Counted from the stretch's first letter, positions 1,808 to 49,145 are shown. The stretch is DNA of 64,000 nucleotides from Amphiscolops sp. MND2022 (GCA_964187785.1 OZ076409.1:53818001-53882000); one strand, 5' to 3'. Notes: a model not told the origin generated them from the letters alone. Numbers and translations are program-made.

Positions 1808-2630
1808 ATGGAAATGAATCTACCATTCCATCTAGACGACCTCTCAGCTCTTCCAGTCAGTCCTAGTTACTACTCTTCTGATGAAGAAATGGATGTGGAC
1901 ATTCATTCAGTCAGTGCTAACCGAGACGAAGCTGAAGATAGTGATATAGAAGTGATCGCGTGTTACCGGCAAGTACCAATTCAGACAGAGGGACTAGTTG
2001 CAGGACGCAAAATGACTGTGGAATTACCAGACAGTGCAGGATATACCTACCCCGATTTTCCCTGGGAGGATTTTGATAGCATGATGCAGTTGGTGGACAG
2101 CCTGGCTGATCCGCTGGATAGGGGAGCAGGGCCAAGTACAACTACCCAAAGCAGTAGTCCCCCCATAAAGCATTGTGGTAAACTAACGCCTTTAGTTGAC
2201 ACCCCCTGTCTCCTCCACCACACGAGCGTGGTCCAATTTACAATTATTATGACTACACAACGACAACGCAGCCTCGAATGCTACTCCAACCGAATTCGCA
2301 TATACAAGGACTGAGTGTCCTCATAGCGTCACAATGTGGACAGCCAAACCAAGCTCAATATGATATGGCGCTTGTATAGTTTGCGGAAGGAGTTATGAAC
2401 AAATAAAGGAAACCGCTGTCCTTGGATACCTAAAGTCTACTACTTATCGAGGAGAAAGCTACAACGATCAACAAAGAAGACGTGATGCTTACTTAGCCGG
2501 AATGGACCAGGGTACAGTGCTCTTCATCCCTAGGGGAGTGTCGCAGGCTGCCGCCTGTGACGGCAATCTTTACCAAATCACATTGGAAGGAGACAACTCT
2601 AATCTTCCTCCAAGAGTACTCCCCATTTAA
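1808..2630 (+). pseudogene. ORF3 of family B: acidic N-terminus plus CxxC domain, frameshifted, ends inside the 3' LTR
   Basis: ORF 1808-2314, then in another frame CIVCGRSYEQIKE...AYLAGMDQGTVLFIPRGVSQAAACDG...LPI*; homologous to 23899-24682 and 42671-42946. Confidence 0.75.
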
Positions 2631-4114
2631 AGACTGCCAAGCACCAAAAAGTAATATAAACTGCATGTATTTTGTTATTATTCTTATTACTTTTAATTTC
2701 ACCGTAAAAGACACAAGGTCTATACGGCCTCAGTACAATTAATAATTTTAGTTTACAAGGATGAATTTAATCATTTAGTAGTTCATCCTGTGCCTGTTTT
2801 ATTATTGGAATGTTAATGCAATTTGACAAATGAATGTAAAATCAATGATATAATGAAATGCAATTGTATGCGAAAGAGGAAACGCGTTCAAATGAGCGCT
2901 TCTTCTAGTAGTTTGTACTTGCTGTACAAGTATTTTAATCCAATCAGAACGCAGTATATTAGTGACGCTCCGTGGACAGAATGTCTGCCACGGTGGAATT
3001 AGCGCGAGAGTGCTGTTAGTGCTGTGTTTGAGTGTGGCCACGCGGACTTAAAGTCCGCTACGGTGAAATACTGCGATAACATCAAAATATGCATTCTGAA
3101 TACATGTAGTGTTGTAGATTAGTATTGAATGTACTTACAGGTCACTGTTGATATTTTCCTACTTTGTCGGCTTGACCATAAGACCCCCCATGCTTTTCTT
3201 TGATGCAATGACGTCATGGTGATGTATGTTAATATGATGCTATTTTTAGATTGTCATATCTATATTTAGTAACATGACGCGCAATTTTTGTGCTGTCATC
3301 TCCTCCCGACTATAAATAGGGAGAGGACTAAACCCAAAGGGACAATCTTTCGATAAACTGAACTACAAACAAGTTGATAAATTTGACCAATTGATATTGT
3401 GCTTGTTTTAACCGTTTCATACGCTTGTACTATTCGTTCTTCAATTCAATATTACTTGTACTAATATTTCTTCAATGCCATCTACAAGGAAGCAAAAGGC
3501 AAAGGAGAGACGCTCTAGACAACTAGACATCATGTCTGATGTAGAAAATGTTGATGTAATGTTAGGAAATTATTCAACAATTAATCAAGATGATGACCGT
3601 AGCGAAACTGAGATAAATTTGGACTCTGAGTCAAGTAAGCCTCAATGTGCCTCTAATCTAACTGGGGAAGACTTTAGGTCATTACTTACAAACAGTAGAG
3701 AAAACAGTGAGATCACGATTCAGACGAATAGACTGATAAATGAGGAAATTTCAAACCAAGTGTCTAGGAGATTAAATGAAATCAAAACCAGTTTAAATTC
3801 CCAAATTCAAAATGCTATTACTGCTGCAATAACTGATACAGTGCTTCCTTCTATACAGAATGTGTTAGAAATGCAGGGGAGACCAAATTTCACCGTGGTA
3901 GACCGGGCGTCCAACGGGCCTCATCCTGGCCCAAGGACAGGTAATTCCACCGTGGAGGACCAAAGGTCCAGTGGGCGACAGCGGAACCCCGAAGTAGGAA
4001 ATTCTCTGAAATCATGGGAAAATCGTCCCAAAACCTGTTTTACGCAGAAAAATTGTGGACAGAGGTCTAGAGAAAGTTCAGTAGATTCTTATACGGATGA
4101 ACAAAATCGCGACA
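2539..4114 (+). repeat. 3' LTR of family B (1576 bp) containing the gag N-terminal coding region from 3475
   Basis: Terminal inverted TGTCGC/GCGACA; TATAAATA at 3311; MPSTRKQKAKERRSRQLDIMSDVENVDVMLG is homologous to the start of A gag. Confidence 0.85.
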
Positions 4115-4128: not shown

Positions 4129-5436
4129 TGTCGCAGGCTGCCGCCTGTGACGGCACGAAGATTACGACGACCTCAAACGGACAAGAGACAGCGACAGGTA
4201 CTCTCCCGATTTATTAAACTGGAACTGATAATGAAAGCTTGAACTTTTTATCCCAATTTTTTTTTATTTTTTGCAATATTTCAAACTTGATGTTGCTGAA
4301 TATTTTCATTTTTATTTACAATAATTAGTCTGTTGAGGCTTACAATCAAAAGATCCGATCTGAATGTTCTAATGTATAGCAGTGCAGTGATACGTTCAAT
4401 GTAATTGAAACAAGAATGCAAGCAAGTTTACGGTGTAACGGAAGCGAGTTCAAGTGAACGAAACTCTTATTCCGGAGGCGTCACTTGAGCTCATTATATT
4501 AGCCAATCACAATCATTCATTTTGCAGTACTATACTCGTTTTAATTAATTGGCCGAATTAGGCCGTTTGACGCATTGATGCATTTGTTGAAGGGGACGAC
4601 AGGCAAATGGCCGGATTGGGCCATTTCTCTAATTCATTGTTTAAATCGCTATGTTGATGATATTTGTATGATTTGATTGTCATGTAAGATCATATTCATA
4701 TTTGGAAATACTCATGAGCCTCTTGAGACGAATCAGTGTGATTAATATTAACCAACAAAAACGTTTTTAGATACCAGTCCTTTGGACTACTCCGGCCACT
4801 CTCATTAACAAACCCTCCTGTCAAATGGCCATTTTGGGCCATGTTTCATTGTGCAAGATTACATGAATTGATGTTGCCTCTTTGTTGAATGTGCCCGCTT
4901 ACGCTGGCACATGTCAATATAAAGCTGTTTAGCTTCTTAAAATATTTGTAATATGACACTTGCTTGATGTACTTTGCCGCTTTAAAATGTTTGTTGCCAT
5001 ATCAAAGAGAGAAATTTGAATGGCCACGTGACTTGACCAATCACATTCCAATAACGCTTTGATACGAGTCTCATGACCCAGTCAGGTGCTTTTTGGAATG
5101 GTATTCATGCATTTTCTGAATCGTTATGTTATGTATGTCATGCCCAAGGGAGTATAAACAGTAGTTGTTTTCCTTGGGAAGACACAATTTGTCTTATTCT
5201 TCTACTATTCAGTTTAGCTGCAAACTCTTTTCTGTTTATACCTAAATTACTGTTTTCTGAATACGATTTATTGAAGTATTTGAATATGGATTCTCTTCAA
5301 ATGCATACCGCAAGAAAGCAAAAAAACTAGAGAGTCAAGAGGGCTTGAAATGCTCTCAGATTATGAGAAACTAGATTTAATGCTAGGTGAAAACCTTTTC
5401 AACGCAAGAGAGAGAGACGAAAGTTTGAACAGCAAT
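4129..5436 (+). repeat. 3'-truncated LTR of an A-related subfamily
   Basis: Starts TGTCGCAGGCTGCCGCCTGTGACGG; encodes SQAAACDG...GTLPIY*; shares the GAGTTCAAGTGA..CGAAACTCTTATTCCGGAG block with the A LTR; gag start MHTARKQK at 5300 breaks off near 5436. Confidence 0.8.
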
Positions 5437-11292: not shown

Positions 11293-11828
11293 CGACTATT
11301 GATAGGGCTATTACCAAGACTCTCACCAAAATGTTCGCACTGTACCAGAATATCTGGCTGTACCAAATTGCCTGCAATATTAAAAAGTTTTTGTGTTGTA
11401 AAAATAAACAAGACCTTATTGAGACTTTCAAAAGTAAACGGGAACATAAAAATATGCAAATTTTGGCAGAGTTTCAACAGATTTTGAAGTGGTTTGTAAA
11501 TGAGAGCGCAAAAAAAGAAAGCAACTTAATATCCGAATAAGTGCCGACAACCCTATCTGCGTTAAACAGTTGACATGCAATATGACAGATTTCTGGGAAC
11601 ACTTTGTTGTCAGTACCGAGCGTTTCAGCCGACACCAGTTCACCCAAAACACTTGTCTCGTGCTGATATTTTGTTGACAATAAGGAGTAACAGATCAAGC
11701 TTGAAATGCTTTAAGAAAGTTGCTCTCAGGGAAACCAAAAATTCCGAAGCAAAACGTTTTTTCTCTTCTAGCGATTTTTGGTCGTAAAATCTAAATCACT
11801 CGTCAAAGCCTTTTTTTCATATGACAAA

Positions 11829-13679
11829 TGTCGCAGGCTGCCGCCTGTGACGGTACGACAGTGACTACGTCGGCGAACGGGCAGGAGTTTGTACCCGGAA
11901 CACTACCCATCTATTGATCAGGTTAAAACATAAAACTTATAACTTTTACACCATTTTGATATTCAATGCGTATTATGTTTGTTGATGTTGCTAGCTTTAA
12001 TATACTTGCATATGTAAAATTAGTCTGTTAAAAGTTACATTTGAAGGTCCAAATAGTATAATTGTGACTTTGAAGATTGAAAGGTGCTCTGCAATTGTAA
12101 ACGTAATACGCGGCAATGTAGCTGTACAGCGTAAAGGAAATGAGTTCAAGTGAGCGAAACTCTTATTCCGGAGACGTCACTTGGACTCAACATTCCAGCC
12201 AATCACATCGCTTCTCTTTGCTATATTGGTACTGCTTTGATTGTGTAGTGGCCGAGTATGGCCAATTGACTCAATATGTATACTTCACTACGCGCTTTAG
12301 TCAAATGGCCGGTTCCGGCCTTCTAGATGAAATGAATTGTATACTCGTGTAATTAACCATACTAATCGGAAATTGCTGTAGATGTATCCCTGATGGTGGA
12401 TGAAAGCTTTCATACTGAAGAGTCTGCCTAGTAGACCTAGTGTTAAAATAAAAGCCGAGTAAGGCTTTCGCCCTCCCTTATTATGATGCTAGATTAATAA
12501 ACCGGATTTGTCCTTTTTCGGCCTTGGTAAAAGGCATGTTACTTTGATAGTGTAGTACTGCTTTAAACAAGCTGGACATGTAATATTTGATCTTCTTTCA
12601 ATCTATGTTAAATGATGAACACGTGGCAACGCGTGTCAAAAGGGATGCCTCTTGGATTCCCTCAGTGAGTATTGGTTTTTGTTTACAAAATAATAGTGAT
12701 GATGTTTTCATAAAACAAACCTTAAAGGTGCGGCTTGTATACTTATCGATGCGTTATTTATTTGATGTTGAATTCCTAGAAATTACCTGAATGTCAGGAA
12801 TTTACCCGGTTGAGACTTCAAACAAATATGTGCTTTGAAGTGTTGGTTAATTTACTAGTAATAATGATGATGTTTATCCCGTGACCTGTTAAGGCCGCGA
12901 TCATGTAATATTTGTTCTAATCAAAGAATCCGTGGAATGTGACTGTCACCTTTCGAGAGTATATATACCCATGTGTCGAGAGGAGAAGTCATAATTTCCA
13001 CAACCTTGTTTTGATAAAAATTGAATTGACATAGTGATTCCTAACTAGTTTTCTGGTGAAAATAATTGAATTGTTTGACCCAGTTCTGTCTTGATCCCTA
13101 CTACAAGAAAACAAAAGAAAGCGAGGAAATCGAGAGGGATAGAGATGCTCTCAGATATAGAAAACTTAGAAATTATGCTTGGTGAAAACCACTATGACAG
13201 AAATGAAAGGGAAGAGAGTGTCACTAGTAATCAGGCTAGGAGACCGAGAAGTCTCTCAAGAGATGAGTTTGAAAACAATGACGAGAATAATTACTTAGAA
13301 ACGGGTAGTTTTGGTTCCGGTACAAGTGCCAATCATGGCCAAAATTCGACAGGAGGCAATTCAAGTGCAGAGATCAATAGATTGTGCAGTGAGCTGAATT
13401 CGAGGCTATCTAGAGAACTTGATGACATGATGAGTAGTGTTAATACCCAGATCCAGAGAGCAATCAATGACGCGATCAGTGGTCAAATTATACCACAAAT
13501 CCAATCTGCCTTAAACGCCGGATCTGGACAGTTGACATTAAATAAATGGAACGTTTCGTCCGAGAGACCCGAAGCGAATTCCGAAGAAATCTATAGTGAG
13601 AAAGCCAAGAAAAGCAATAGAAGTGAGCAACGCTTTGATTACCAAAATGGCAGTCAGCCTACTCTACGTGCTTACGACA
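11829..13679 (+). repeat. 5' LTR of element A (1851 bp)
   Basis: Direct repeat of 24594-26446; TATA-like TATATATA near 12960; terminal 10-mers are 8/10 inverted. Confidence 0.95.
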
Positions 13680-14810
13680 TGGTGACAGGAGACAACGAAT
13701 CTCCAATCGAGGCTCCTGAGTTTCTCACAGGACGAATGCCACCAAGAAACCATCTTCACAGTTCCCATGACAACTTCGATCCACTACTAGACACGACGAT
13801 CCCAGCACAAGAAAGAAATGCTCAGGCCCCTGAACTAGACCCCATCAAACGACTGGCTGATGTCCTGACAAGCATGCAAAATCGTCCTTCAGCCCAACAG
13901 CTCACTATCCGCCCAGTCAACTCAAACACGATGACTTTCGATGGCAAAAGTGAAAAATTTGAGCTGTTTGAGGATCCGTTCCACACGATGATCAAGATGC
14001 AGCCTGAAATGTCTGAACAGATGAAAATTAACCATTTTCATTCGCTGCTAAGGAAAAACGCCTTACAAACATTCCGAAACATTAGCACAGCCAATCGACA
14101 GACCCTTGAAGACGTATTAAACATATTTCGACGAAAATACGTCAAACCTGAATCTCAAGCAACTGCCAAACACAAATGGCACCGTCTGGTGTTTGATCCA
14201 AACACAACAAAACTACCAGATTTCCTTGAAGAATTGAACCAAGGTGCAGAAAAAGCGTTTAGAGACAACGCCCAAAAGATGATTGACAGCCTCCTATACG
14301 CAAAACTGCCACCGAAACTAAAAAGATCAGTTAATATGGCTAGATTAGAAAATGGCTCATATGATGAGATAGTTGCTCATTTGGAGAGAGAATTGGAGCT
14401 TAACGCCCTCGAGGAGTCAGACGACCTACCAATGGCGACAATGACTTCCTCATCCGCCAAGCCTAAAACTCCTCTGTCCACTGCGCAAATGTCAGACATC
14501 ACTTGCAATTACTGCAAGGAAAAGGGCCACATGGTCAAGGACTGCGAAAAATTGAAAAAGAAAAAAGAGAAAGATGCCCAACAAGGCAAGTCGACCCAGA
14601 AGAAAACATCCGGAGTGTGGCACTTGTGGCAAAAAGAACCATCTGGAGGAAAGATGTTGGTTGGGTGCCGGTGCACATCTTAAAACCAAACGCACTAGGC
14701 CCGGAGACTCAACTGACAATAAGCCCAACCCAAAAGCTCAGAAACCTCAGCACAAGCAAACTTCATCAAGCTCCCAATCCTCATCTTCCAATGATGACTC
14801 AAAAAACTAA
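13094..14810 (+). pseudogene. gag: Gag (LTR-encoded N-terminus, capsid-like core, two Zn knuckles), one frameshift near 14600
   Basis: ORF 13091-14683 with FDGKSEKFELFED and CNYCKEKGHMVKDC; ORF 14574-14810 with CGTCGKKNHLEERC. Confidence 0.9.
13680..13691 (+). promoter_or_regulatory. Primer-binding site TGGTGACAGGAG
   Basis: TGG directly after the LTR-terminal CA; resembles a tRNA-Leu-type PBS but the cognate tRNA is not established. Confidence 0.75.
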
Positions 14811-17800
14811 CTTCGTCACGACTCCAATACAACCAACGAACTAATATCTGTCCGACAATACATCAGATCGGACCCTCCAACGCAAACTTTTCATCAATAC
14901 AATCAGCAATTGATGGGCTATCCCTCTGTTGTCTGGCAGCAGCAGATGGAAAAAGTTACCATCATCACTTACAATAATACCCATTTGTTCCAGAAACCAA
15001 TTCCTGTTTGGGATCCTGATTATACAACTACCTTTGCAACACGGTTCAGGCCCATTCCCCTGATTGACGATTACAACCCAACATACATCGACCCAGACTA
15101 TGGCAGAGATCCCTATTGGGACACCGAGCTTTACAACCAAGATCTACTGCAATTTCAATATGTCCTAGACGATATTGACTACTATAACAGAACAGTCCAC
15201 GAGAACCCTCCAATCACCCATAACAAGAAAACTTGAGCACTAATTGAAAACTGGCAAATGAACGATGGTACAAACCACCCAGTGTTCCCAAACCCCTTGG
15301 GGACCGAGAACCCTGAAACTACTGCCGAACCCATACCACAGTCACTATTAGACGAGAAACAATTCCAGAATGTACTCATAACCAAAGACGGTGAGCCAGA
15401 CTGTATACCTCTGTCAACCAACATTACCCTCAAATGCAAGAAACGCATGCTTTATTTCCCAATGGACTTTGGGGAACTGACTATTGATGGCCTCATAGAT
15501 ACTGGGGCTCTCTCCAGTGCAATCCCTGAAATGGACCTCCAGAAAATTCGTCTTCTATCTCCACAATCTGTTATCCGAGAAGGTCCGCCTCCGAACTTCC
15601 AAATAATGGTCGCTAATGGGCAACTGGAAACTCCCAAGAGTACCATAGAGCTCAAATTCGAAGTTGGTGACATTGAGTTCCATGAAATCTTCATAGTAAT
15701 GGAACATTTGACAAGACCGATCATTGGACTGATGTTCCTTCAAAGAAATCAGATAGTTCTGGACATGAGACAAGGAATCCTGAATTTCCTGTTCTTTTCA
15801 ATGCAGCTAAAAACAGCGGATCATAAATATTCAAATGTACTAGAACCAATCCTCAACCCCACCGAAATAACCATTCCGCCAAACGATAGAGTCCTAATCA
15901 GGACCAATTCCCTACTGTACCCCGAGAATGCTGTCACCGGGATACTACAACCGAGCGACCTTCTCCACGAAGAAGGCGACATCACATTTTGCCCAGCCTT
16001 GGTCACTCTAAATGATGGCAGTATATCGATACCTGTGAATAATTTCACAGACCACCCTTATAAACTTAAAAAGGGACTCCATATTGCCAATTTCTCAATC
16101 ATGACGCCAGAACAGATGAAATATGTCAAACCCGTAGACCCGGCTTCAACCTGGCACCTCATGCAAAATGACCAAGAGCAGGCAGCCCATTATGTCAGCA
16201 GCCTCATCAAGACGAACAGAAATCCTCAGAATTCCGAAAATTACTGGTTCCCAACCCCAGAAAACCCTGGAAACCCTGAGGAACACACACCTATCCAGAA
16301 ACGAATCCTACACGAGTTACAGGCCCTGCAGGACCTGGAGACACTCGACCCCACTACAGATGCAGCATCCCGTGCAAAATTCCTAGAAAACTTCGACTGG
16401 AAAGATTCCACTCTTACTCCTGAAGAAAAGGAGAAAGGAGAAAATTGAAGAATTACTAGTGGAATTCCATGATATATTTGCACGACACCGATTCGACATA
16501 GGCATGAACGAGGAATTCAAGGTGAAATCGACGCACCGGTGGCATATGGGTCCAAAAGCTTCACCCCAGCACAAATCAAGATATCAATCTATGCCAAAGA
16601 ATTCCTTGCAATTTATTTTGCATTCAAAGAATTTGGCTACATCTTCTGGGGTGCGCCCAAACCTGTCATTATCTTAACTGACAACAAAGCCGTAACACGA
16701 TTTTTCCAAGCGAAAATAATACCCCCAGCACTGTGGAACGCGTGTGATTATGTTATTCAGTTCAACTTTGTCATAGCGCACATCCCGGGGGCACAAAATA
16801 CAGCTGCCGATTACTTGTCCCGATTGGAAACAGATCCGAAGGACAAATTAGTAATGAAAATTCGCGAAGATGTACAAACACTACCAATCGAAATCAATGT
16901 CCAATCTGCAGGGGTGTCACAAGAAGAACAAATCTTCTACACCAATGATGACGATGAGACAGAAGACCAGTATTGGGCAAGGAAAGAAGCAATCAGGAAA
17001 AATCCGGCAACTGATGAGCCCACTGTTACTATACAAACTCTGTCAACAAATCTGGTCAAGCAACACCCCGATATACAAGTCCGACTGAGGAAGACGAACC
17101 AGATCATTATCGAGCAATCCAAAGATGCGGTACTACAACAATTGAAAGCAAAACTGCTTCATGAAGAGTATTCAGAAAATCTACTGCACCAGGATGCCCG
17201 ATACAGACATTACGCAAACAATCTGGAACGAATTATACTCAAGGATGAAATCCTGACAAGGCAATACTTTGATGAAACAGGGAACGTTAAATACCATCAA
17301 ATTCTGCTCCCGCAACATTTACTCCAGGAATTACCCAAGTCTTTCCACGGGACAGCGCATAAACATCCTGGCATTTCAAAAATGTTGCAGGAAATCCGAC
17401 AAAGGTAATACTACCCTAGCATTGCCAAACACGTCAAAAAATGGGTAGAGGGGTGTGAGGAATGCGCAAGAGACAAGCGAGTCCCCAACGCAACAATTAC
17501 GCCTGAATTACTCAACTTGCCCGAATGGGACCTTGGACCTGAAGACGCCATGCAAATCGACCTATTGCCGAATCTTCCCCCAAGTGGTGGGTATGAAAAC
17601 GTCTTAACAGCAATTGATGTATTTTCCAGATATTTGTTCGCCTATCCCCTTACGGACGCATCAGCGATCAATGTAGCAAAAGCGATCATTGACATCATGA
17701 CCAAACATGCATATCTGCCAACGACTCTTATTACTGACAAGGGTACTGCATTCACTTCTACAATTATTGCGGAGGTTACGCAAATTTTGGGCATAACACT

Positions 17801-18987
17801 CAAATGTGCAACAACAAAACACCCGCAGACAATTGGGAAACTGGAACGAACTCATGCCTCTTCGAAAACAAATCTCAAAATGGCATGTGGGGAATACCGC
17901 CGACAATGGCACAAATACTTGCCATTAGCAGTACTCAATCACAATACCAGTTATCATGCCAGTATAGGTTGTGAACCAACGAGAGTATTCCATGGAAGAA
18001 TTCCATACAACATCTTGGATCACAAGCTTGGAAACCATCAAACGAGCAGATCAATCCCACAACCGAATTCGCTGAAGAAATACAAATTCGGACAAAAATC
18101 CTGATTGACAAAACAAAGCAGAACATTATGCAGTCGTATATCAAGTACAAAGAATATTACGACCGCAAAGCAAAAGCCGCTCCATTAAAAGAGAATGAAT
18201 ACTGCTTTGTTGTACAGCCGAAAGCGGATCATCAAGGATCAAAAATTCCATTCCGTGATTATAGGTGGGTCGGACCATTTATAGTCCAAAAAGTTTTACC
18301 TAATGACAATTGTATTGTACGACGAATCAACACAAACGAGACTCAAATATTGCATCGGATTCGCTTTAAAAAGTTTGTCCCTAACCAACCGCTCGAGGAC
18401 AATTTCCGAGAACAGCGGTTACAGCCTGATGAAGAGATCGTCATTCCGCAAGACGACATATATATCATAACGTGGGAAACAGGTTTTGGCGAGCAGCTAA
18501 TTACACGAGGACACAATCCTATTCCGACTAGCATGCCGACCGGCGAACGGCCGAATGCGGCAGAACCGAGTCACAGTGACGTAAACGAGAACGAAGCGGA
18601 TTACATAATCACGCGAGAAGAATTAAACAACGACAATGCGACGCACAGCCAGAACGATCGCTTAAGTGATGACGTCACTAAAAGAAATGGAACTACTACA
18701 GTGACAGAAAATGAAGAATCTGATTGGCCGAATCCGGCCGTTTCCCCAAAAAACCAAGAAAAATCCTTGCCGAATACGGCAGATAGACCGGAAAACGATG
18801 AAAATTTTTCAGAAAGAAATTGACGAATGAAAACGATACACAAAATTCTCCAAACAGGGGGGATGATATTATCGTGCCCGAAATATCTGAAAACGATGCT
18901 AGAAATGAAAGTGTGAGTCCTAGAGGAAGGAAATATAATCTCAGGCCTAACCCTAACCCAAACTACTCAGAAGACTTCAGATACTAG
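14811..18987 (+). pseudogene. pol: Pol: aspartic protease, dUTPase-like relic, RT deleted, RNase H, integrase
   Basis: LIDTGA (PR); AYGSK...YAKEFLAI...LTDNKA (RH); HGTAHKH...CEEC, QIDLL, ITDKG, KLERTH (IN); several stops and frameshifts; no YxDD region. Confidence 0.92.
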
Positions 18988-19242
18988 AAAAGACTGAATT
19001 CAGATCAGGAAAACAAGCCCTGAATCTTCTACTTTTCTTTTATCTTTTATCATGTTTTTTTCCTCTCTCAGTCCCATGCGAGAAAGTATTTTGAATAAAT
19101 AATGGGACGTATGAAAGATCCCTTACAAAGAAAATAATACGGGATCAAGAAATCAAAAGAAAGAAATGCATATAAATGAAGGCAACAAAACAGAAAATCA
19201 ACAAAGTTTACAGTTTGAAAGTACATAAATACAAATGTTCAT

Positions 19243-22200
19243 TTAACCTTTAGAAGTGCCAACAGGAGATTCTTCTACGACAGAGGAAGCCCTAGACCTC
19301 GAACTACTCTTTTCCATTCGTCTCCGTTTACGGTCACTAGGAGGCACGACTGCGGGCATTTCCCCGACACTGTAGGACCGTGTATCATCAAGGCTCCCAG
19401 TCCCTTCGCCCACCCCAGGGAGGGCAGAACGGTATGAAGCAACCAGGGTCTTGTAGATCTTGTTCCTACCAAATTCGTCGACAAAAGTCCAAGGATCATA
19501 TGAAGCAGATGAGGCAGACTGACTGAAAGAAGCAGAAAGAAGAGAGAAATTGGCCAAACTGGAATCACTAGTACAGAAGGCAATGGAATCTGGAACCCCA
19601 GACAGATAACTGTGGGCAGGCAAAACCACCCACGTCCACGAGCCGGTTTTGGCAATTTGAAGTACTAATAGATCCGATACTCACAGCAGGGTATTGAGGG
19701 CTCTCGGAGGTGATGCACAAACAACTCAGTTTGAACAAGTACATTAGATGGCTATGCTCTTTCATGAAGTCAAGGTTAACAAGGAAGTCGATGAGGTCTG
19801 GGGACCCTTGACTGACATCAAATGAAGGCAAAGATAGAAGGATGAATCTCTTCTCTTCTGCAAGTTAGTGGTGAAGCTAGAGTTGTCTAAACATAGGACA
19901 CTAACGCATATCAGTTCAAAAGGAATAACCCTGGCTTATCGTAATATACTAACAATCACTGATGAGGTGATAGAAGAATTCGAGCTTCACGGGAAAAAAC
20001 TCATCACAGATGAGCGACCACTCAAAACTCTGAACCTGGAACAAATAGGAGTATTGACGGACCTAAGATATTCTCCACTTTGACAAAAGGAACTGGACCA
20101 AGATGGGATTACTTACTCTTGTCCTGACTCCCTGGCCCTGCTGCTTGGCAGAGTGCAAAGTGAGGAAGGAAACCACAAACTTCCACTCGTCCATAAATTC
20201 CTGGCACAAGATAGGCAGTGTGGAGAGCTCCAGATCACTCTTAGAAATCGCCTAAAAGAAACACGAAACGATCAAACGACAAGGCTTGAAACCTCTGACT
20301 GATATAAACTTGTCTGACGCCAAGACAATAGTAATCACTTACTTTAGCTAGAACGGGGCTGCGCTGTACCCAGTCCTCATTTGCTGATCCGCCAAAGGAA
20401 ATGACCAGGCCACGGAGTACCGAAAAGAAGTCTATGTGCCCGAAGACACTGTAGCTGCTTTTGTGCATTAGTTTCGACAAATTTAGCTGAGAGAACCTCA
20501 AGCAACTCTGGACAGCTCGCACGGAAGTAGGTACCTCGTCAATGGTCCGGATTAGCTCAGACGGGCATCCGGAACGAGCCACTATATCTGCTTTTGTAGA
20601 TATGGACGATAACAGGCGTGCCAAGGAGCCTAGTTCTCCAGTGAGATTAGTGGTGGGTAGACCACTACGGCAAACGATGACTTTGCATGGGTACTGGCCT
20701 TTCCAGAACCTCACCGACATGAAACGATTGGGTCCCTGGTCCTCGAATTCCAAAGCAAAGCACTGCAGGGTAGAGATCTGATCAGCAATGTCGCTCATGG
20801 AACAGTTGAAGAGATGTTGGAATGTGGCCTAGAGGAAAAATTCAAGAGTATAACCACTTAGGGAAGGAAGATAAACTCGAGGAAGAGGAAAGCAAAAGAT
20901 ACTTACAGTCATTCTATCTTCTCCCCAGTCAAAGTCACAGAGAGAGAGGCTTGGTGGTCGGTGAATGAGCTGATTTTAGCCCACATGCTTCGGAGGATTG
21001 CAATATCTCCATGGCTCTGGATGAAATCAGCCACCATGCTTAGCTGGGTTCGCGCGCGAGACTCGGGGGATATTAAAGGGGTAGTCCTGCCCCGGACGAA
21101 ATCCTCGTAAAAGGGGAAACTTTCCCCGATGTCAACCAACTCCACGTTCATAAACTTGGGGAGTTCCTTAGCTAGCTCCATCTTGCTCAAAATCTTTCCG
21201 TTCCTGCCTCGGACGCGGTGTTGAGTTTTGAAAGTGACGGGATCGGTACTTTTCAAATGTTCGTACCGCCATCTCTGGTCTCGTCTAAGATGCTTTTCAG
21301 TCCGGTGGTGCCTGAGAATTTCCATTGTCCCCTTACTCCGAATGGAAAAGTTTTTCTTGCAGATATGGCACCAGAACATATATGGATTGTGGATTGGATC
21401 TGCCGGACCTGAAATGAAAGACCGAGTCCACCCAATTTTAGCGAAGAACTCCTCTCGCATTGGGACTCCACGTTGGGACTGTCTCTTAGCCTTTGGTGTC
21501 TTCTTGGGCTGAGGTTTACTTTTGGTCTTTAGTGTCTGTTCCTTCACCTCGGACAAGGTAATATCCTGGCTGCTCCGATCAGTTTCTTGGCTGCCCTGTT
21601 GCAAGACGTCAGACTGTGCTGTGGTCGAAACGATCTGGATTGGGGCCTTGAAGGTGGCAGAAATTAGGGCCATTTCACCAGCGCTATCACTCTCTCCAAA
21701 CGAGGAGGAATCGCCTAAGCCTCCATAGTCAGTGGTGGTCTGGTCTTCTGAGTCGATGAAGGGCGAATCGCCTGTTTCGGCGTCACTTGAGTCACTGTCT
21801 ACACACCTAAAGGGAGTCTGCGCTCGTGACTTAAAATGATTGGTTCGCGAGGGAGCAATTGTTGGCCTACCTCGGACAGCGTCCAAAATCATCCGTTCCA
21901 TTGTGCTATGGGACATTCGGAGTGTTTCATCGGTCAAGACACGCAATAGATGGTACACTTGGGACTCCGTCAAGGTAACTGCTGTTTGTCCTGGTGGGAT
22001 CCGGAAGGCATTTGTCTCATCGAAATAAGTTTTCCAAATAGCCCGTGCTCGACCAGAAAGTTCAGGAAGCTGTGAATCGGGACCCCGAGAAGTGGATGCA
22101 ACCATTTCAGGCTGTTGTTGCTGACTGGGGATGGTTATGTCAGGATGGCCACTAGTTTCAGCTCCGGATTCGGATATCCCAGGGATACCTCCGTATAGGG

Positions 22201-22833
22201 AAGGGCAACCGCCACTGCTTGTCTCCTCGGCTGTCTTCTCTCCCTCGCTGAAATCGGCCAGGAATCGCACCTTGTGCTCATGCGTGGGCAACATGGGAGC
22301 TTCATATACGGAAGACTCGCAATCTTCATCGTCAACCAACTCTCCAACCTTTAAAGCGGCAGCCTCAACTTGTACAGCAGGAAGAAGCTCAGGTAACTGG
22401 GATTCGGGATTATTGACAACCCTTAACCCTGATTCCAAAGCATTTAGGCTAGTTTGTGACGCTCCTGCTGCATCAATCAGTATTGGGGTGCTGGACCGGA
22501 CTGCTGAGACAGAGGAGCTTGGTCTCCAGTAGGGGTTTCAGTACTGGGCGTGGCCATGGTAGGATCCACAGAAGTTGGCTGTTCTTGTGACTGAGGTCTT
22601 TCAGCCTCCATTTCGCGCACCTTGGCCTCTGCATAGATGTTCACATCCTCACTTTCAACGCTTGGAGGGGAAGTCTCAGATCTGATGACGCTTGTTGTAT
22701 TTGGAACAACACCTTCTTCAGGAACTGTCTGAAGTAATCCGGAGGGGTTTGATGTAGTCCCAGTTTCAGAAGTCTGATTATCTAAATAGAAAGAGATAAA
22801 ATTGAGCGGTATGCTTCCTTGAAAAGAATCCAT
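19243..22833 (-). pseudogene. Antisense accessory gene of element A: low-complexity N-terminus, C2H2 zinc finger, hAT-transposase-like body; spliced
   Basis: ORFs 22477-22833, 20909-22438 (WCHICKKNFSIRSKGTMEILRHHRTEKH), 20241-20798 (FALEFED...VRFW), 19568-19831, 19243-19629; GT-AG intron 20829-20906. Confidence 0.75.
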
Positions 22834-23898
22834 TTTACCGCGTTAGAAATCTTCCGGAAGTGATTTGAAAATTGAATGAAGCGTGCTTTCACGTGTTTAA
22901 TTGTTGGAAACAGGAAGCGTTATGTGAACGATGTTTGGCCCTGATCAAGCTAAACTTGTTCAAAAAATGAGGAAATCAGACCAACCTGGATTAGAAGACA
23001 TGTTTTGTGGTGATGTCCGTACGGCAACAGCCCAACGTGGGATGATGGAAGCGTGGGAAGTTGGTCGAACTCGGCTAGAGATGAAGGGAAGTTGGAGAGG
23101 ATCCGACGGGAGATGGCTACTGATGGAAGTGAAGGCAGGAGCGATCGTATATCGTTATCGAAGACTCGGATGGATGGATAATACAAATATAACAATTACG
23201 AGAGTAAAAGGAATTGGAATAAGTTAATAACCAAGGAGATTGAAAGTTGGAGTTCGTGGCTGAAGAATATTACCAGACTAATATTATATGATTATCTACA
23301 TATTTAAATTGTACATGGGGTCTGCCAGCGGAATGTACAGAAAACATTCATTATTTACAGCTTGCTTAGTTAGAGGCCGATCATGGCCGTTTGCTTTATT
23401 TTGTTTTACCGGTTTGTTCCTTCTTCCCAGTTATTTTTAGTTAGAACTTACGCCATTTTGAGTTACTTTAGGTATTATTTTCGTCATTTTTATTTATTCA
23501 TTTTTCATTTTATCAATGGGTAATTCTGATTGGCTGAAGCCATTTTGGGGAGACTCAGTAACGTAAGCCGTTAACCACCAGCAAACAACCCGTTAATTAC
23601 CCACTTGAAGTGATGTTATTTGTTGATAACAACTTGAAGATGCTTCTCTCACCCACTTGAGAAATGATATTAGGGGGGCTTACCACCTACAACTCAAAGA
23701 AGCGATGCCGCTAAAAATTTCCATTCAGAAAAGTTTACGACGACTCGGGACGATTAACCTGAGGATCTACCGCCGAGTAGAAAACCCGGGAAAATGTCCT
23801 AACTCGGCATATGACGGAATTTAGGTAGATTCACTCTGTCTTAAATTATTCAGCAATCAGTCGCCTTACCAGCTTCGAAAATCTCCAAAAAACTCATC

Positions 23899-24682
23899 AT
23901 GAGCAAGTTTAACCTCTCAAGAAAATTGTTTGACTTTGAAGAGTACGATTCTGATAACTCTGATAAATCAGTAATCTACATATCCAGTAGTGAAGATGAG
24001 TCCTCAGACTGAGAAACCGATTGTTCGACAGACACCGAGCAACTGATAGCCCGGATTGAAAGAGAAGTTACTTCCAGCCCGATGCTAATCGGGGGCAGGG
24101 TAATGACCATGGATGAACCCGAAGACGAGGCGAGAGCTGGGCCAAGTACGTCTCAAGTGGAGGAAGGGGTGACACCGAAACTAGGCCTTAAATACTTCGA
24201 TAGAGAAATGTGCTATGCCCCACCAAGGAAATTTGAAAAAAAAAACGCATAGAGCTCTGTAACACGATAATGCCCGTCCTAGAGTCGCCTATGTCCCCCC
24301 GGAGCACGAGAGGGGTCCGAATGTAGACACCCCCCTCCTCCAGCCGACTTCGAGTAATTTTCATGCGTCCTACCATGTGCAGAACTCAGTACCTTACCAA
24401 AATGTCAGTGAGGTGCGTTATAAAGGATGCATGGTTTGCGGCCGCTCAGTGGACTCAATCAAGGACGAAAAGGTGAAATGGTACATGCAACGATCTACAC
24501 CGAGAGATGAGCCTGAATACATCACGAGACTCAGAAAGGAGGCATATGAAAACGGACTCAATGCTGGCTGTTTTCGTTTTATCACACCCGCAGTGTCGCA
24601 GGCTGCCGCCTGTGACGGTACGACAGTGACTACGTCGGCGAACGGGCAGGAGTTTGTACCCGGAACACTACCCATCTATTGA
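23899..24682 (+). pseudogene. ORF3 of element A (acidic region plus CxxC domain), ends 89 nt inside the 3' LTR
   Basis: ATG at 23899; LIGGRVMT and AGPST match LVAGRKMT and AGPST of family B; CMVCGRS...VSQAAACDG...GTLPIY* in ORF 24377-24682. Confidence 0.75.
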
Positions 24683-26446
24683 TCAGGTTAAAACATAAAA
24701 CTTGAACCTTTTACACCATTTTGTTATTCAATGCGTATTTTGTTTGTTGATGTTGCTAGCTTTAATATATACTTGCACATGTAAAATTAGTCTGTTAAAA
24801 TTTACATTTGAAGGTCCAAATAGTATAATTGTGACTTTAAAGATTGAAAGGTGCTCTGCAATTGTAAACGTAATACGTGGCAATGTAGCTGTACAGCGTA
24901 AAGGAAACGAGTTCAAGTGAGCGAAACTCTTTTTCCGGAGACGTCACTTGGACTCAACATTCCAGCCAATCACATCGCTTCTCTTTGCTATATTGGTACT
25001 GCTTTGATTGTGTAGTGGCCGAGTATGGCCAATTGACTCAATATGTATACTTCACTACGCGTTTTAGTCAAATGGCCGGTTCCGGCCTTCTAGATGAAAT
25101 GAATTGTATACTCGTGTAATTAACCATACTAATCGGAAATTGCTGTAGATGTAACCCTGGTGGTGGATGAAAGCTTTCATACTGAACAGTGTGCCTAGTA
25201 GACCTAGTGTTAAAATAAAAGCCGAGTAAGGCTTTCGCCCTCCCTTATTATGATGCTAGAATAATAAACCGGATTTGTCCTTTTTCGGCCTTGGTAAAAG
25301 GCTTGTTACTTTGATAGTGTAGTACTGCTTTAAACAAGCTGGACATGTAATATTTGATCTTCTTTCAATCTATGTTAAATGATGAACACGTGGCAACGCG
25401 TGTCAAAAGGGATGCCTCTTGCATTCCTTCAGTGAGTATTGGTATTTGTTGACAAAATAATAGTGATGATGTTTTCATAAAACAATACTTAAAGGTGCGG
25501 CTTGTATACTTATCGGTGCGTTATTTATTTGATGTTGAATTCCTAGAAATTACCTGAATGTCAGGAATTTACCCGGTTGAGGCTTCAAACAATTATGTGC
25601 TTTGAAGTGTTGGTTACTTTATTAGTAATAATGATGATGTTTATCCCGTGACCTGTTAAGGCCGCGATCATGTAATATTTGTCTTAATCAAAGAATCCGA
25701 AGAATGTGACTGTCACCTTTCGAGAGTATATATACCCATGTGTCGAGAGGAGAAGTCATAATTTCCACATCCTTGCTTTGATAAAGATTGAATTGACATA
25801 GCTATTCCTAACTAGTTTTCTGGTTTAAATAATTGAATTATTTGACCCAGTTCTGTCTTGATCCCTACTACAAGAAAACAAAAGAAAGCGAGGAAATCGA
25901 GAGGGATAGAGATGCTCTCAGATATAGAAAACTTAGATATTATGCTTGGTGAAACCCACTATGACAGAAATGAAAGGGAAGAGAGTGTCATTAGTAATCA
26001 GGCTAGGAGACCGAGAAGTCTCTCAAGAGATGAGTTTGAAAACAATGACGAGAATAATTACTTAGAAACGGGTAGTTTTGGTTCCGGTACAAGTGCCAAT
26101 CATGGCGAAAATTCGACAGGAGGCAATTCAAGTGCAGAGATCAATAGATTGTCCAGTGAGCTGAATTCGAGGCTATCTAGAGAACTTGATGACATGATGA
26201 GTAGTGTTAATACCCAGATCCAGAGAGCAATCAATGACGCGATCAGTGGTCAAATTATACCACAAATCCAATCTGCCTGAAACGCCGGATCTGGACAGTC
26301 GACATTAAATAAATGGAACGTTTCGTCCGAGAGACCTGAAGCGAATTCCGAAGAAACCTATAGTGAGAAAGCCAAGAAAAGCAATAGAAGTGAGCAACGC
26401 TTTGATTACCAAAATGGCAGTCAGCCTACTCTACGTGCTTACGACA
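24594..26446 (+). repeat. 3' LTR of element A (1853 bp) with duplicate gag N-terminus (25858-26280)
   Basis: Direct repeat of the 5' LTR, followed by TSD ACAAA. Confidence 0.95.
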
Positions 26447-27721
26447 ACAAATGAAAATTTATTCACTGCCAAAACAAACCAATCAGTGATTACAGTCACT
26501 TTAAACTATTCGCACTGTACCAGAATATCTGCCTGTACAAAATGCCTGCAATATCCAAAAAATCCAGACGACTGACATACACTCTCCAGATGACTCTAAT
26601 TTGCCAGCGTTCATCGCAACTAACATTTTTTTCGACCAGACGTAAAAGATGGACAAAACCTGAGGAAATTCGAATTGTAATATATAGTATTGTTCCACCG
26701 CCTGGAAATTTCTGGAACTTTAAACTAAATGCTTTATCAAATTCAAGCTACATCAATCAGCAATCACTGTGAGTTTGCCACTGCTTGAAATATTTTTGTT
26801 ATTCGGCAGAAATCTTTAATAGAATAAACTTTTTTTACCAAAAAGGGCTCGAAACAACCGGCAGCGCTCCAGAAACAGGGGAAAAGTTTGAAGAGGTAAC
26901 GAAAAAGGATGTGAGACTTTTATGAACTATTTAGACTCTTTTCTGTTCCCCCATCTGCAGTGTTTTCGATCATTTCTAATGGTCATCTAAATTCTAATTG
27001 TCGAAATTCTCTACATTTTTTTGACATATAAGAGCCCATTTATAGATAGAAGTCGCTATACCTTTGATTGTGAATCAAAACGTTAGTAATAAAAAAAGTC
27101 AACGAGTTTATGTTTTGAGTGTTATGAAGCAGTTAATTTGACTCAATTCCTGATCAAAAACTCTAAAGCTTTATTTGTTCAACTGTAAAGCTAACTTTAA
27201 TTGAAGTGAATTTCCGGTACCAGAAAATGATTTCTTATGGAACGCGTTGACAGTTGAGAAATGTTCTGCTCTTTTCTGTTTTCTCACCATCAAACTTTTT
27301 AAGGGAAAATTTTAGAAACAATCACAAACTGGCCTAATTATAGTGTTTGGTGACTCAAATTAGGTTAACTTCTTAATCAAGAATGCGTGACTTAATAGAG
27401 AAAAATTTGAAAACGTTTGTATCTGGATCCTAAACTGTGACCCTAAGAATAAATTTAAAACTGGAGGTTAAATGTTTGGTTTTAAGTCTTTATAATGTCA
27501 TATTTTCACCAACTGGAAAAACATTTGGTGGTGGGGGAACAGAGAGGAACCAAATTTTTAAAGAGTGAAAATAGAAGAAAAGAGTCACTGTTTGGAACCA
27601 CGGGCCACAGTTTATAGGAATTGAGAAAAAAAGAACTAGGTTTTGAACTGAGCATTGTCCTTGAAGTCTGTTTACGATCGTGGATACATTCTACATCGAT
27701 TAAGAATAGGTTCCCGTACTG

Positions 27722-28518: not shown

Positions 28519-29370
28519 GGCTCTTTTCTGTTAAACCCACACCCCCCACCACCAAAATTTTCCTGAAAATGACTTTCCTTAAGAACTTTAGGAACTTTTT
28601 CCTTTTCCCCCCACACTTTTCAAGATGATGTTTTTGCAATTAATTATATCTCAATTGCGTTTCCAATGAAACAGTTCAGTTTTAAATTTATTCTCAAGGT
28701 GATAGTTTAGGATTCAGATACAAACTTTGTTCACACTTTTTCCCCATGTAGTTACGCATTTTTGATGAAGAAATCAACAGCTTCCTGTTTTGAGTCATCA
28801 ATAAACACTCAATACGAACATAATTAGTCAAATTGTGTGAACAATGTTTTGTTCAAGCGGAAAACTACTCTAACAGTGTGGAGACAACAAAACAAAGGAA
28901 AAGATTCATTCGAAGAAATATTGAATGATATAGTCAAATATAATCTTTTTTGTTGAGTTTGTTTTCTTTAAAAAGTGTGGGGGGAAAAGGAAAAAGAGCC
29001 GAACTTTAGACTAACCTTATTAAAAGTAAAACCTTCGTTCATAACAGGAAGTTAATGTCCATTAGAGTAGTTTTCCGCTTGAACAAAACATTGTTCACAC
29101 ATATTGACTATGATTATGTTCGTATTAAGTGTTTATTGATGACTCAAAACCGGAAGCTGTTGATATCTTCATCAAAAATGCGCGCAACTATGTAGTTACG
29201 CGTAACTACGAAGGGAAAAAGTGTGAACAAAGTGTGTATCTGAATCCTAAACTATCATCCTGAGAATAAATTTAAAGCTGAAGCTTTCTGGTTTGTAATC
29301 AAGTCTATTTGCTATAAGATTTTCACTAATTTTCCAAAAAAAATGGTGGTTGGGGGGGCAGAAAAGAGCC
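28519..29370. mobile_element. Foldback/MITE-like element with long inverted arms
   Basis: 28681-28873 is the reverse complement of 29062-29276; weaker outer arms near 28519 and 29370; partial related copy at about 27420-27550. Confidence 0.75.
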
Positions 29371-36990: not shown

Positions 36991-39900
36991 AAAAAATACA
37001 TCAGAACAGCAAGTAACATCACAGTTATCAGGAAGACATAAATTGGTAGGGGTGATAACGACCGTGTTGTAGGAAGTCTCAAATAAATTCTGCAACGTTG
37101 CCCTTCTAACGCTGCTTTTTTCAAGAAATCCCAGACTGAAAACTTCCGGTTCTGGAGCTTATCTTTCCCCCTTCCAAAAACCAGAAAACGAGAAATTGAT
37201 CGAGGCTCTCATTCCAAACTTGACACGTTTGGTACAGTTGTAAATGATATCTGCACACCACCCACCCATGAACGAAAAACATACTCTTCAGTTCCAAGTT
37301 CAGGAATTGGAATGGTAATCGGTACAGGAACTTGGACTAGGGGAGGTAAACACAAACTCGCTCATTTAAATAGCTGACACAATTTCGGACGGCACTGCAG
37401 CTCGTAGTGCGAAACCAAAACTTGGAACCAGTTTTCTGGTAGAGTGACATCGCAGACTCTAAGTTTTGCTACAAAAGAAAAATACTGGCTGACAGCTTTG
37501 ATCTTCTCGCTCGAACTTGACCAAACAATGTTCACGAAATGACTGGTAAGACGTTCAAGTGCAGCAATGTATTGTTCTTCAGTACCCTGTAAAATGACTG
37601 CAGAATCGAAACACGATAAGCCACGAACCAAATTGGGTTTGACGATCTCATGCGATAGAAAATTCCACAGAATGACACTCTGCCAGTGACACGTGGAATA
37701 CGATGTGCGATTCAAAAGATAGGTTTTGGAGAATAAAAGTAACAAATACATGTTGAATGAAGGCACGGAACATGGTCAAAATGAAATTTGGATAAAAGCG
37801 TATAAAATGGGAAACTGTAAAACATTGTAAAACCTGTACAAACAATCGTCGAGAACACATAGGGAATGATGAACAATCTGGCCAGGTACGCCGTATCAAG
37901 ACGAAAACACTCGTCAAGGATGCTGGGCTATAACAACAAATTGACGATTTGAAACGAGGAGAGAACAATATTAATCTTTTAAAGAGACACAATACAAACC
38001 TCTCGCATGACGAATTGGTTAGAAGGGAGTCTGGATACTCAGCTGAGATCGTCAAGGACCTAATCCCAGTGGGTTGACAAGAATTCAATTAGAACCGAAG
38101 CTTCCTTTGGGAGATACGAGAGATCCAAACACGCGCTACAAAAACACATGATTTTTAAAACGAGAATCATAAAAATTACTTTTATTGTATAAAAAATTGT
38201 ACCTTGTGGCGAGTTGGAAACGATTTTAGCCGGTCTCTGTCCAGCGCAGTCCACAGCTTCATTAAAAGAAAGTCAAGTTTTGTGCGGTAATCATGTTTCT
38301 CTAGGATCCAAGATGTAGGCAAAGAGAGACAACGTTTTAATTCATTGGGACCGAAACCAGTGACAGAAGTAGGCCGTAATCGTCCGGGTAAAGAAAGTTA
38401 GAAGCAAGAATTGAGTCCATCTTGACAATCCACGAGACAAAAGAAGGAAGGGTGTGATTCGAACAGGCTCAGGAAAGAGGCAATCACTCCAATCTTCTTT
38501 TTTGGAATCAATGTCCCTCGGGGCCCAGTCCCTAGGCAAATTTGGTAGAAGACGTTGCCTGCCCAGAAACGTAGGAAAATGTGCGTCTCAAACTGGTTGC
38601 TTTGGAAAGACAAGAATATGTCCCGTTGGCAGAAATGAAAGGAACACAATGTCACAATGTTGCATCAACTCACGAAACATGAAGACGATAAGAGCCTCCA
38701 AAAAAATCACGGATAACCAAGATACGGATCTAACTGAAAATAATGGAAATGCACGTATGTTTACAAATAAACGTTCTCGATTACAACTGAGGGTGGATTC
38801 CTGACTATTGCCTGGGAAGAGACGAACCATCTCATACCACATTCCGGCGACAGTGTCCACGTTACCACCATGACGAAGTCCGTACTTCAGAATACCAATC
38901 TGCGAGATGACGTCCTCACTAGGATTTGAAGTAATGGAAAAATCAGAGAGTCTGTCCTGTCCCACTAAAAGGCGACAAGCATCTAGCTGGGGCGCTATTG
39001 GGTAGGTCTCCTTTGCCACTCTCTTGGCTTCTTGAAGTGTATTTCCAGTGAGTGTTTTCTCAGAGCGATCACACAAGGGCACGCCAGGTGTTTCCAACCT
39101 GGTCCGATGCTCTTTGACCAAATGTAAGTCGGTTTTGAAATGAGAGAGCAATTCGGGGACACCTCTTCTCATGAGTAATAACTCTACTCTACACACTTGA
39201 CACCTTCACTTGTATGGTGTCTTTTGACGATCGATTGGTCCAGTGGCAAAGAATTTAGGCATTGGATGATTGCGCATCATGTGAGTCATTAGAGAATACT
39301 AAGGCCTGCGCCGCTTAACACTTGGGGCTGGCATATCCTCGCAACCTGATTGAGTCATTGATTCCTCTAAATCTCGGTCGTCAGTCCTCGGTAATGCTTC
39401 TCTGATGACAACTTTACTGGGTGAAATCGGTGGATTTTCAATCATGTTAAAAGAAAAACTGCTGGTTGAGGTCGGGTCAGGGTCACTCAACATTGTTTGT
39501 GGGATCGTTCCCAAAACACTAGTTATCGCAAGCACTTCTCGTTTAGTAATGACCATCTTTGGCGGTTCCCCCGTAGTTGGTCAATAAACTTCATCAGAGG
39601 TTGAGGGATTCCCTGGCGGGTTCGCTGACATTGATTCGCCAAGTGGAACTACTCGCCAAATCATTTGAAGAATTTCTGCATCCCGCTCTGTTTCTTCTGG
39701 ACTGTAAAGAAAGGAAACAATCCGGGGCGAAGCGGTTTGGCAGCTGTTCAAGGCTTCAGCAGCCTTGGAGACGTCTTGCAGGAACGTATCATTGACAGTC
39801 AGTGATGATAAATTGTGTAATAGTGACTTTACATCACACTCTGGGTTTTGCGGAGGATCTTCCTTGTTTTCCTCTGTTGCTTCCCGATTTACAAGTCAAC

Positions 39901-40998: not shown

Positions 40999-41120
40999 AT
41001 GCGGCAATATGCGGAAATTTATGACCGCATATGCGGCAAGATACGGAAAATCACCACTACACATACGGCAGTATGCGGAAAATACGACCGCATATGCGGC
41101 ATGATGCGGAAAATCAGCCA
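40999..41120. repeat. Four 31-32-bp tandem units rich in ATGCGG, with two CCGCATATGCGG palindromes
   Basis: Read directly; the same palindrome occurs in both C LTRs (33067, 43384). Confidence 0.85.
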
Positions 41121-46260: not shown

Positions 46261-46265
46261 CATTA

Positions 46266-48544: not shown

Positions 48545-49145
48545 GTCAGTCAAACTTGGATATCACATGTCACCTAGGAAGTCAGTGCTTTATATGTGCT
48601 TTTGTGAACATTTGAATGTTTTGGTGAAGCTTCTTCAAAGAGGAATTTTTAAGCAAAGTTTTTATGCTCCCAAAATTCACATTTAGAAATTGAAATCAGA
48701 ATAATGAAGGAATCAAATAAACGCAGCATCATTTGTATGTTTTGTGAAGCCATTACCGATTGTATCAACTGTTTGTTAGTATGAAAAAAACGGAGACCGA
48801 ATCGTTGAGTACAAGAATTGTGTTCAAGCTGGTGTGAAAAGAATTAGTGTTAGTGGTGAAACTTCTTTACTTGGAAGTCCGTAAGAAATGAACATGACCA
48901 GCTGCTTTTCCGCATTGAAACCTATGCGAAGCTACTTATAACTGTAGAAAGAATCAAACCACGGTTCGAAAAAGTATGTCAGTTCAAACAAGCCAGTGAT
49001 GAAACTCGAAAGCGATACAACAGAAATTGGGTTAGATCGAATTAACTCGAAACACCTCATCATTTCGAAATGTAAACATTAAAAAAATTCAAGATTCAGA
49101 CACATTTTAACTACAACGTGACGACACTAGAACGTGGCGACACCC

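Follow-up and report, generated by a model that had tools for sequence, protein, structure and literature searches.

An antisense hAT-like gene as fixed cargo of a Ty3/gypsy retrotransposon lineage in Amphiscolops sp., and a candidate regulator of its own carrier

Extra open reading frames on the antisense strand of LTR retrotransposons have been recorded for decades, and their origin and function are described as unresolved (PMC7264820). The closest described arrangement is that of the plant Ty3/gypsy elements Retand, Grande and RIRE2, in which an antisense ORF (TRP28, PF04195) lies between pol and the 3′ LTR. According to the cited accounts it occurs in nearly all members of the lineage, often together with tandem repeats; Grande gene23 has been shown to have its own promoter, such ORFs have been proposed to encode DNA-binding regulators, and their origin is given there as unknown, with no clear similarity to other transposable elements (PMC11963269, PMC7264820). 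HBZ of HTLV-1 is also encoded antisense and toward the 3′ end, and is described as a nuclear regulator (PMC11963269). Lineage-fixed extra genes of GDSL, DEDDy and AlkB type have been reported from Ty3/gypsy elements of rotifers and orchids (PMC5408684, PMC9289625). Among DNA transposons, VANC of VANDAL and TnpA of Spm are fast-evolving accessory proteins associated with family-specific short motifs; VANC targets are reported to be concentrated in tandem repeats as well as in introns and intergenic regions (PMC5735166), VANC has been traced to MAIN-like proteins (PMC13547354), TnpA is described as derived from a transposase, and transposases are said to act as sequence-specific regulators and to become such on losing catalysis (bioRxiv 10.64898/2026.08.24.746577). 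No hAT-derived gene in an LTR retrotransposon was described in the open literature searched, which lies outside Repbase, supplements and subscription journals.

Here we analyse a 64,000-nucleotide stretch of the Amphiscolops sp. MND2022 assembly (GCA_964187785.1 OZ076409.1:53818001-53882000), hereafter the window, from whose first letter all positions are counted. On its minus strand lies an antisense gene of five exons, housed in a Ty3/gypsy element, where it occupies the interval from pol to the 3′ LTR. This is the placement of the Retand-type ORFs, from which the gene differs in having four conserved introns and a whole hAT-like fold; PF04195 (TRP28) gave no match in any Pfam scan of the gene or its carrier, and the gene is neither a hAT transposon, having no DDE or TIRs, nor TRP28. 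HBZ is an unrelated protein with its promoter in the 3′ LTR, whereas the promoter here is apparently internal. The captured ORFs of rotifer and orchid elements are described as keeping their catalytic residues and as not being transposase-derived (PMC5408684, PMC9289625), and VANC and TnpA serve plant DNA transposons, whereas here a class I element carries an apparent class II protein whose function we infer. Domesticated ZBED-type proteins differ in that the antisense gene is carried by a retrotransposon and by neither a host nor a DNA transposon.

The complete LTR element that houses the gene spans 11829-26446. Its LTRs lie on the plus strand at 11829-13679 (1851 bp, TGTCG...CGACA) and 24594-26446, are 97% identical, and are flanked by a 5-bp target-site duplication (TSD), ACAAA, at 11824-11828 and 26447-26451; TG...CA LTRs with a 5-bp TSD were also found in 7/7 other copies, in keeping with Ty3/gypsy elements. 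A family and domain scan placed gag, with a CCHC knuckle, at 13079-14683 (+), and the last ~600 bp of the 5′ LTR code for the Gag N-terminus (~200 gag codons inside the LTR, at 13079-13679 and 25846-26446 in the window and 2068-2683 in L033). Because gag starts inside the LTR, the primer-binding-site-like TGG sequence at 13680-13697 (+) falls within the gag frame and the Gag N-terminus is repeated in each 3′ LTR. This PBS-like sequence is identical after the 5′ LTR in 7/7 other copies. Immediately upstream of the 3′ LTR, a 30-base stretch is rich in pyrimidines in 7/7 copies; no polypurine tract was evident there in the window (24565-24593) or in L034, L040 and L046, and this sequence ends in CAG.

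The pol gene (PR-(RT)-RH-IN) occupies 14835-18987 (+), with its RT core deleted and frameshifted in the window copy. In a related copy pol reads PR-RT-RH-IN with an H2C2 integrase finger, as in Ty3/gypsy elements, and the best PDB matches are the reverse transcriptases of foamy virus, caulimovirus and Ty3; pol order and RT matches together identify the carrier as being of Ty3/gypsy type. The segment preceding the protease has no family match, and a weak dUTPase-like match (E 0.058-0.14) lies between PR and RT (L033 pol residues 1-220 and 353-433; window 14835-16100). With its RT core deleted, frameshifts, and exon 5 of the antisense gene partly missing, the window copy is a dead element, and the antisense gene was therefore judged from its relatives.

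The gene ends given in a preliminary description of the window proved exact: on the minus strand the gene opens with an ATG at 22833 and closes with a TAA at 19243-19245. Exon 1 (20907-22833) encodes a long low-complexity N-terminus, a helical segment, a zinc finger and a helical domain; the finger is BED-like, of the form C-x2-C-x16-H-x5-H (21290-21370). Exon 2 (20343-20828) encodes an RNase H-like core without catalytic Asp residues, exon 3 lies at 20117-20251, exon 4 (19954-20035) is naturally fused to exon 5 in 14 loci, and exon 5 (19243-19886), internally deleted in the window copy, encodes a helical insertion-domain-like region and a C-terminal part. The CxxC...H...H finger at 21370-21290, the FALEFED...VRFW strand and the motifs noted earlier for family C are all present in the translations. 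Summed exon lengths come to ~1,270 residues in clade B; the window copy is decayed, with frameshifts in exon 1 and ~170 codons absent from exon 5. A conserved start peptide (22790-22833) and a conserved pre-finger helical segment (21850-22050) are found in exon 1 of clades A, B and D and were not detected in clade C, and the protein ends in a basic RKRRR-like run.

The four introns (20906-20829, 20342-20252, 20116-20036 and 19953-19887; phases 0, 0, 0 and 1) are of GT-AG type. Among the fetched copies, decayed ones included, GT-AG was found at the predicted sites in 85/106, 92/103, 98/103 and 71/76 cases, respectively, and the intron positions are common to clades whose exons are only 19-25% identical. 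Intron 4 has been precisely lost in 14 loci and intron 2 in two, with the flanking exons in frame, and these natural intron-less copies independently confirm the two junctions. They also suggest that spliced antisense RNA may occasionally recombine back into the element. Given the conserved splice sites and precise intron losses, the gene is probably read from its own internal promoter and spliced. No spliced full-length protein was present among the 120 matches listed of 221, or among 9 matches. Additional intron losses seem to be present in other clades, with exons 3-5, 3-4, 4-5 or 2-3 fused (P0215, P0203, P0179 and P0132; L151-L154).

The preliminary description had reported the same strand and place for the gene in three element families, and the clade A and C copies in the window do agree with the clade B copy: the C copy runs from finger to exon 5 at 37113-39298 (-) and is decayed, and the 5′ part of exon 1 of the A copy lies at 1-700 (-), its remainder being upstream of the window (L061). 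When the 1.07 Gb assembly was searched with three finger queries, each returned at least 150 matches (150/150 scored; 7704, 4460 and 7901 first-look candidates), and with all scored candidates matching for every query, the gene is not a chance reading. Of loci chosen by the finger alone, 40/40 had an integrase downstream on the opposite strand, and in 7/7 further loci selected with exon 5 the strand facing the gene carried pol, seen as the IN core in six of them and as the pol tail in one. The gene is thus a fixed antisense cargo of a whole Ty3/gypsy lineage (47/47 loci), which bears out the earlier proposal of fixed carriage.

One may postulate instead that the gene is an ordinary nested or hitch-hiking DNA transposon, and the genome does contain many genuine hATs. 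Six of these (L139-L143 and L145), with ORFs of ~500-700 aa and DDE, CxxH-type and RW motifs, were compared with the cargo gene, and none is detectably close to it. In line with the earlier claim, no TIRs with an 8-bp TSD were found, either in the window copy or in 17/17 other loci (0/18 in all); DDE is absent, place and strand are the same in 47/47 loci, and the gene has diverged together with the integrase (see below). A nested transposon is therefore largely refuted, and we regard it as extremely improbable.

Co-divergence was evaluated in 28 loci with intact integrase, finger exon and exon 5. The comparison of gene and integrase trees that had been recommended was run, and both the integrase and the finger trees recover clades A/D, B and C, with weak support for clade B in the latter; distances for the integrase are correlated with those for the finger exon and exon 5 (Mantel rho 0.88 and 0.82, 0/999 permutations). 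Between clades, integrases are 65-81% identical and exon 5 sequences 19-30% identical. The exons have dN of 0.04-0.32 against pS of 0.64-0.90, with synonymous sites near saturation, and dN/dS is 0.03-0.12 in five exon comparisons, the rest being saturated in dS; by these estimates the exons are under purifying selection. In 7/15 pairs, integrase dS was 0.3 or less while cassette dS was above 1.4 or saturated, and windowed identities revealed one cassette in different gag-pol/LTR backbones, and the reverse. On this evidence the cassette is exchanged between elements of one clade, and none of the 28 loci showed an exchange across clades. Beyond this assembly, the exon 5 profile matched 1017 clusters (50% identity clusters), and because the best matches of P0215 and P0141 among the scored candidates of this assembly are only 29% and 41% identical, the gene probably exists in other organisms too. 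None of 67 and 210 candidates from metagenome scans was confirmed as the gene, nor were any of 66 from scanned viral contigs.

The origin of the protein was approached through both fold and sequence. A hAT origin had been claimed for it, and this claim stands at the level of fold, where both halves resemble Hermes, and finds no counterpart in sequence profiles. For the C-terminal half, the natural fusion of exons 4 and 5 was modelled with pLDDT 89; compared with 48,161 chains, the model placed Hermes at rank 2 (Z 6.1, rmsd 6.2, 198 residues, Hermes 328-609), in a tie with a 90-residue allergen match, and Foldseek returned nothing for it at E<=0.001. The read-through model from finger to exon 3 is of low confidence overall (mean pLDDT 45); it contains an RNase H-like core of three strands, helix, strand, helix and strand (pLDDT ~55-67). 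Its comparison with Hermes in Foldseek, which had been suggested as a check, returned Hermes in all nine top rows (best E 8e-4), and a VIA alignment placed model residues 194-321 on Hermes 134-263 (Z 6.1, 120 residues). Feature neighbours in the Atlas include hAT-type families at 0.79-0.83, and its ten best annotated matches share one common family or clan with hAT-type families listed, although both are leads only.

Sequence searches were negative. In Pfam no hAT family was found for the gene, and Dimer_Tnp_hAT or other hAT families matched 0/114 and 0/36 members; hhalign against six genuine hATs gave a probability of 0.1-0.5%, which does not support the claimed link; and searches of PDB profiles with exon alignments yielded zero and one match, the one being due to chance. 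These results must be weighed against the possibility that the protein is not hAT-derived and is some other RNase H-fold cargo whose Hermes match reflects a common fold. In favour of such a reading, no profile-level homology to hAT was found, and the core also matches integrases, with actin-like ATPases, pelota and integrases tying with Hermes; the structural scores are modest, Z ~6 being middling. Yet, among the rows listed, no entry other than Hermes stood near the top for both halves; its two matches are collinear, and it gives the longest alignment in each of the two 50-row lists (120 and 198 residues). We therefore consider an unrelated RNase H-fold origin quite improbable, and, as two separately folded halves map in order onto Hermes, a hAT ancestry of the antisense gene very probable on these models. 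The resemblance to Hermes and ZBED proteins covers the order of finger, helical domain, RNase H-like core, helical insertion domain and C-terminal part, an invariant Trp at the RW position and the finger spacing; unlike them, the antisense protein lacks DDE, CxxH and ERxFS, has an extra N-terminus of 165-540 residues, and is encoded by a gene without TIRs.

DDE, CxxH and RW are motif names of the hAT superfamily, and their columns were compared in 22 rows, one frameshifted row having been dropped, with the catalytic register judged by eye, using as guides the pattern of strands and an alignment to Hermes of a genuine hAT from this genome. The replacement of the first catalytic Asp that had been proposed was evident in this by-eye register (A10 Q6 E3 L1 H1 D1): clade B has Glu there, while Ala or Gln occupies the position in most of the remaining clades. 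The second Asp column is T11 I6 S4 Y1 in the same 22 rows and register, and no conserved acidic column was found in the seven positions after LxCLC. The CxxH His column is F20 Y2; at the RW position Trp is invariant (22/22), preceded by D14 E6 G2; and ERxFS is lacking, as had been described. By its sequence the antisense protein cannot have DDE transposase activity. What remains, in this register, is a protein that has its zinc ligands and none of the DDE, CxxH and RW motifs, in agreement with the earlier view that it is non-catalytic.

The four zinc ligands of the finger are invariant (29/29 rows), and the Cys-to-His spacing of 16 is that of Hermes C54-H71 (PMC10368747). Residues just before the first His of the Hermes BED domain are reported to contact bases, and two such domains to bind a quasi-palindrome cooperatively (PMC10368747). 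Those residues are the ones that differ between clades in the antisense finger. In an alternative reading the finger is of the U1/matrin type and binds RNA, suppressing small-RNA silencing or exporting unspliced RNA, with the repeated motifs described below being RNA hairpins or the sites of another factor. In structure comparison the finger scored highest against TUT1's U6-binding zinc finger (Z 5.9, rmsd 1.3, 44 residues), its match to Pfam zf-BED is weak (E 4.1), and dyad motifs could form hairpins; however, the Cys-to-His spacing is that of the Hermes BED domain, the clade C motifs are tandem arrays within an intron, and 4-bp arms would make weak hairpins. An RNA-binding role consequently seems unlikely to us.

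Short motifs are repeated in the carriers in a clade-specific manner. GGCC-N6-GGCC was found 9 times in the window, the expected number being 0.16, and always within clade B-type sequence: twice in each LTR (12250-12320 in the 5′ LTR, counterpart 25017-25087 in the 3′ LTR), once in the 3′ tail of pol (18726-18739), once upstream of the antisense gene (23375-23388), in a putative bidirectional promoter between it and the divergent ORF4, and three times in a truncated B-type LTR (4129-5430) that starts 14 bases past a clade A 3′ LTR (2539-4114). With four patterns counted per clade, this motif was found 39 times in 12 clade B stretches and 0 times in 40 A/D/C stretches, and GACC-N3-GGTC 116 times in 20 A/D loci, compared with 2 occurrences in 20 from clade C and 1 in 12 from clade B. 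For the best of two A patterns, single-element Poisson values were <=7e-7 in 8/9 A/D families and 2e-4 in one, compared with 3e-4 to 1e-3 in shuffles and 2e-4 in a cargo-less gypsy element of the window (53863-59959), where no dyad exceeded shuffles. ATGCGG occurs 15 times per 10 kb in clade C and 1.5 times elsewhere. Its clade C copies are grouped at two places, an enlarged intron 4 and the sequence that precedes the gene, and some of them form tandem repeats of 32-37 bp; one such array, of 32-bp period, lies upstream of the clade C gene in the window (40999-41112). By stretch, ATGCGG numbered 8-23 in 9/9 from clade C, and GGCC-N6-GGCC was present in 4/4 from clade B.

Each clade's motif tracks the putative recognition helix of its finger. 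GGAC-N5-GTCC is present in 11/11 families with a KGAREI helix, two of which were fetched after the hypothesis was formed; the fingers of these out-of-sample families are 51-59% identical to those of A/D, with KGAREI in common, and the families have 5 and 4 GGAC-N5-GTCC sites. Four distant families (L151-L154) are enriched for ACGTCA, though weakly, with 15-20 copies against a background of 1-10 in other clades; we take this sequence to resemble a host CRE half-site. L148 carries the gene and none of the known motifs. A family-specific motif in non-coding parts of the element, as associated with VANC and TnpA, was found for clades A/D, B and C. This interpretation must be made cautiously, however: the match between motif and finger spans only four or five related clades, common ancestry alone can produce such covariation, and either ORF4 or some host factor could be what recognises the motifs.

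The distribution of motifs may also be read as evidence for an integration or replication co-factor that would bind motifs in the cDNA so as to tether or organise the pre-integration complex, or would direct insertion. Sites occur in both LTRs and inside pol, and some clade A sites are in coding DNA, including the RT/RH part of pol; the whole fold has been kept, exceeding the needs of transcription activation; and several copies adjoin related elements. Against this, seven 5-bp TSDs that were compared differ in sequence, the motifs concentrate at promoter-like regions, and adjacency is expected in a genome so rich in these elements. We accordingly rate a co-factor role as improbable, on a par with RNA binding.

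Our preferred reading, which we hold tentatively and at slightly less than even probability, is that the gene derives from a hAT transposase, has lost catalysis, and encodes a protein that regulates its own element in a sequence-specific way, comparably to VANC or TnpA, with putative binding and expression. A regulatory role, which we infer, is now backed by the clade-specific repeated motifs. The transposon ends and, in the register set by eye, the catalytic residues have disappeared, whereas purifying selection has preserved the finger and the entire fold; the antisense orientation would let introns survive in sense genomic RNA; and the gene would be transcribed from an internal promoter and then spliced. 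The BED-like finger may then bind the short clade-specific motif in the LTR, internal promoter, pol tail or intron 4, and binding would activate or de-silence elements of the same clade. The same protein and sites might instead repress or limit the element, as HBZ-like feedback or copy-number control: the binding-related evidence is blind to direction, one motif site lies in the gene's own upstream region, and retroviral antisense proteins are described as regulators (PMC11963269). Repression fits poorly with the abundance and youth of the carriers, whose LTR pairs are 97-100% identical, and the known analogues with co-evolving motif arrays are reported to be anti-silencers (PMC5735166); repression is thus unlikely, if marginally less so than the other roles weighed above.

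With the same reserve, and again not quite as an even bet, we propose more broadly that an entire class II (hAT) transposase was taken over by a class I element, which uses it as a private transcription factor, finger and target co-evolving by clade and the cassette being swapped within clades only. If so, a transposase was domesticated by another transposon class and not by the host, self-regulation in the style of VANC and TnpA would extend to retrotransposons, and an LTR lineage would possess a private activation or anti-silencing code, which may help to explain how it came to be so numerous. The clades would also supply a ready-made set of zinc fingers that differ in specificity. Here the origin can be traced, the predicted target recurs within the element, and nature provides several finger-motif pairs, making function directly testable.

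The carriers have a second extra gene, ORF4 (23899-24682, +), which has an acidic N-terminus and a His/Cys C-terminal domain and is frameshifted in the window. It encodes 260-360 aa, is divergent from the antisense gene and conserved in clades A-D (also L034 4435-5214), with one His and three Cys invariant. ORF4 extends into the LTR in the window, overlapping its first 23 bases in clades A and B. It has no family match or usable Atlas match, and was not detected in the fetched stretches of L148 or L151-L154. Among other elements of the window, the gypsy-like element that served as control is unrelated to the carrier, has 205-bp LTRs, and had no cassette detected. MITE-like elements with long inverted repeats lie at 45727-46183, 47726-48557, 28675-29282 and 60540-61947, and members of a dispersed repeat family at 46263, 49345, 62194 and 63645.
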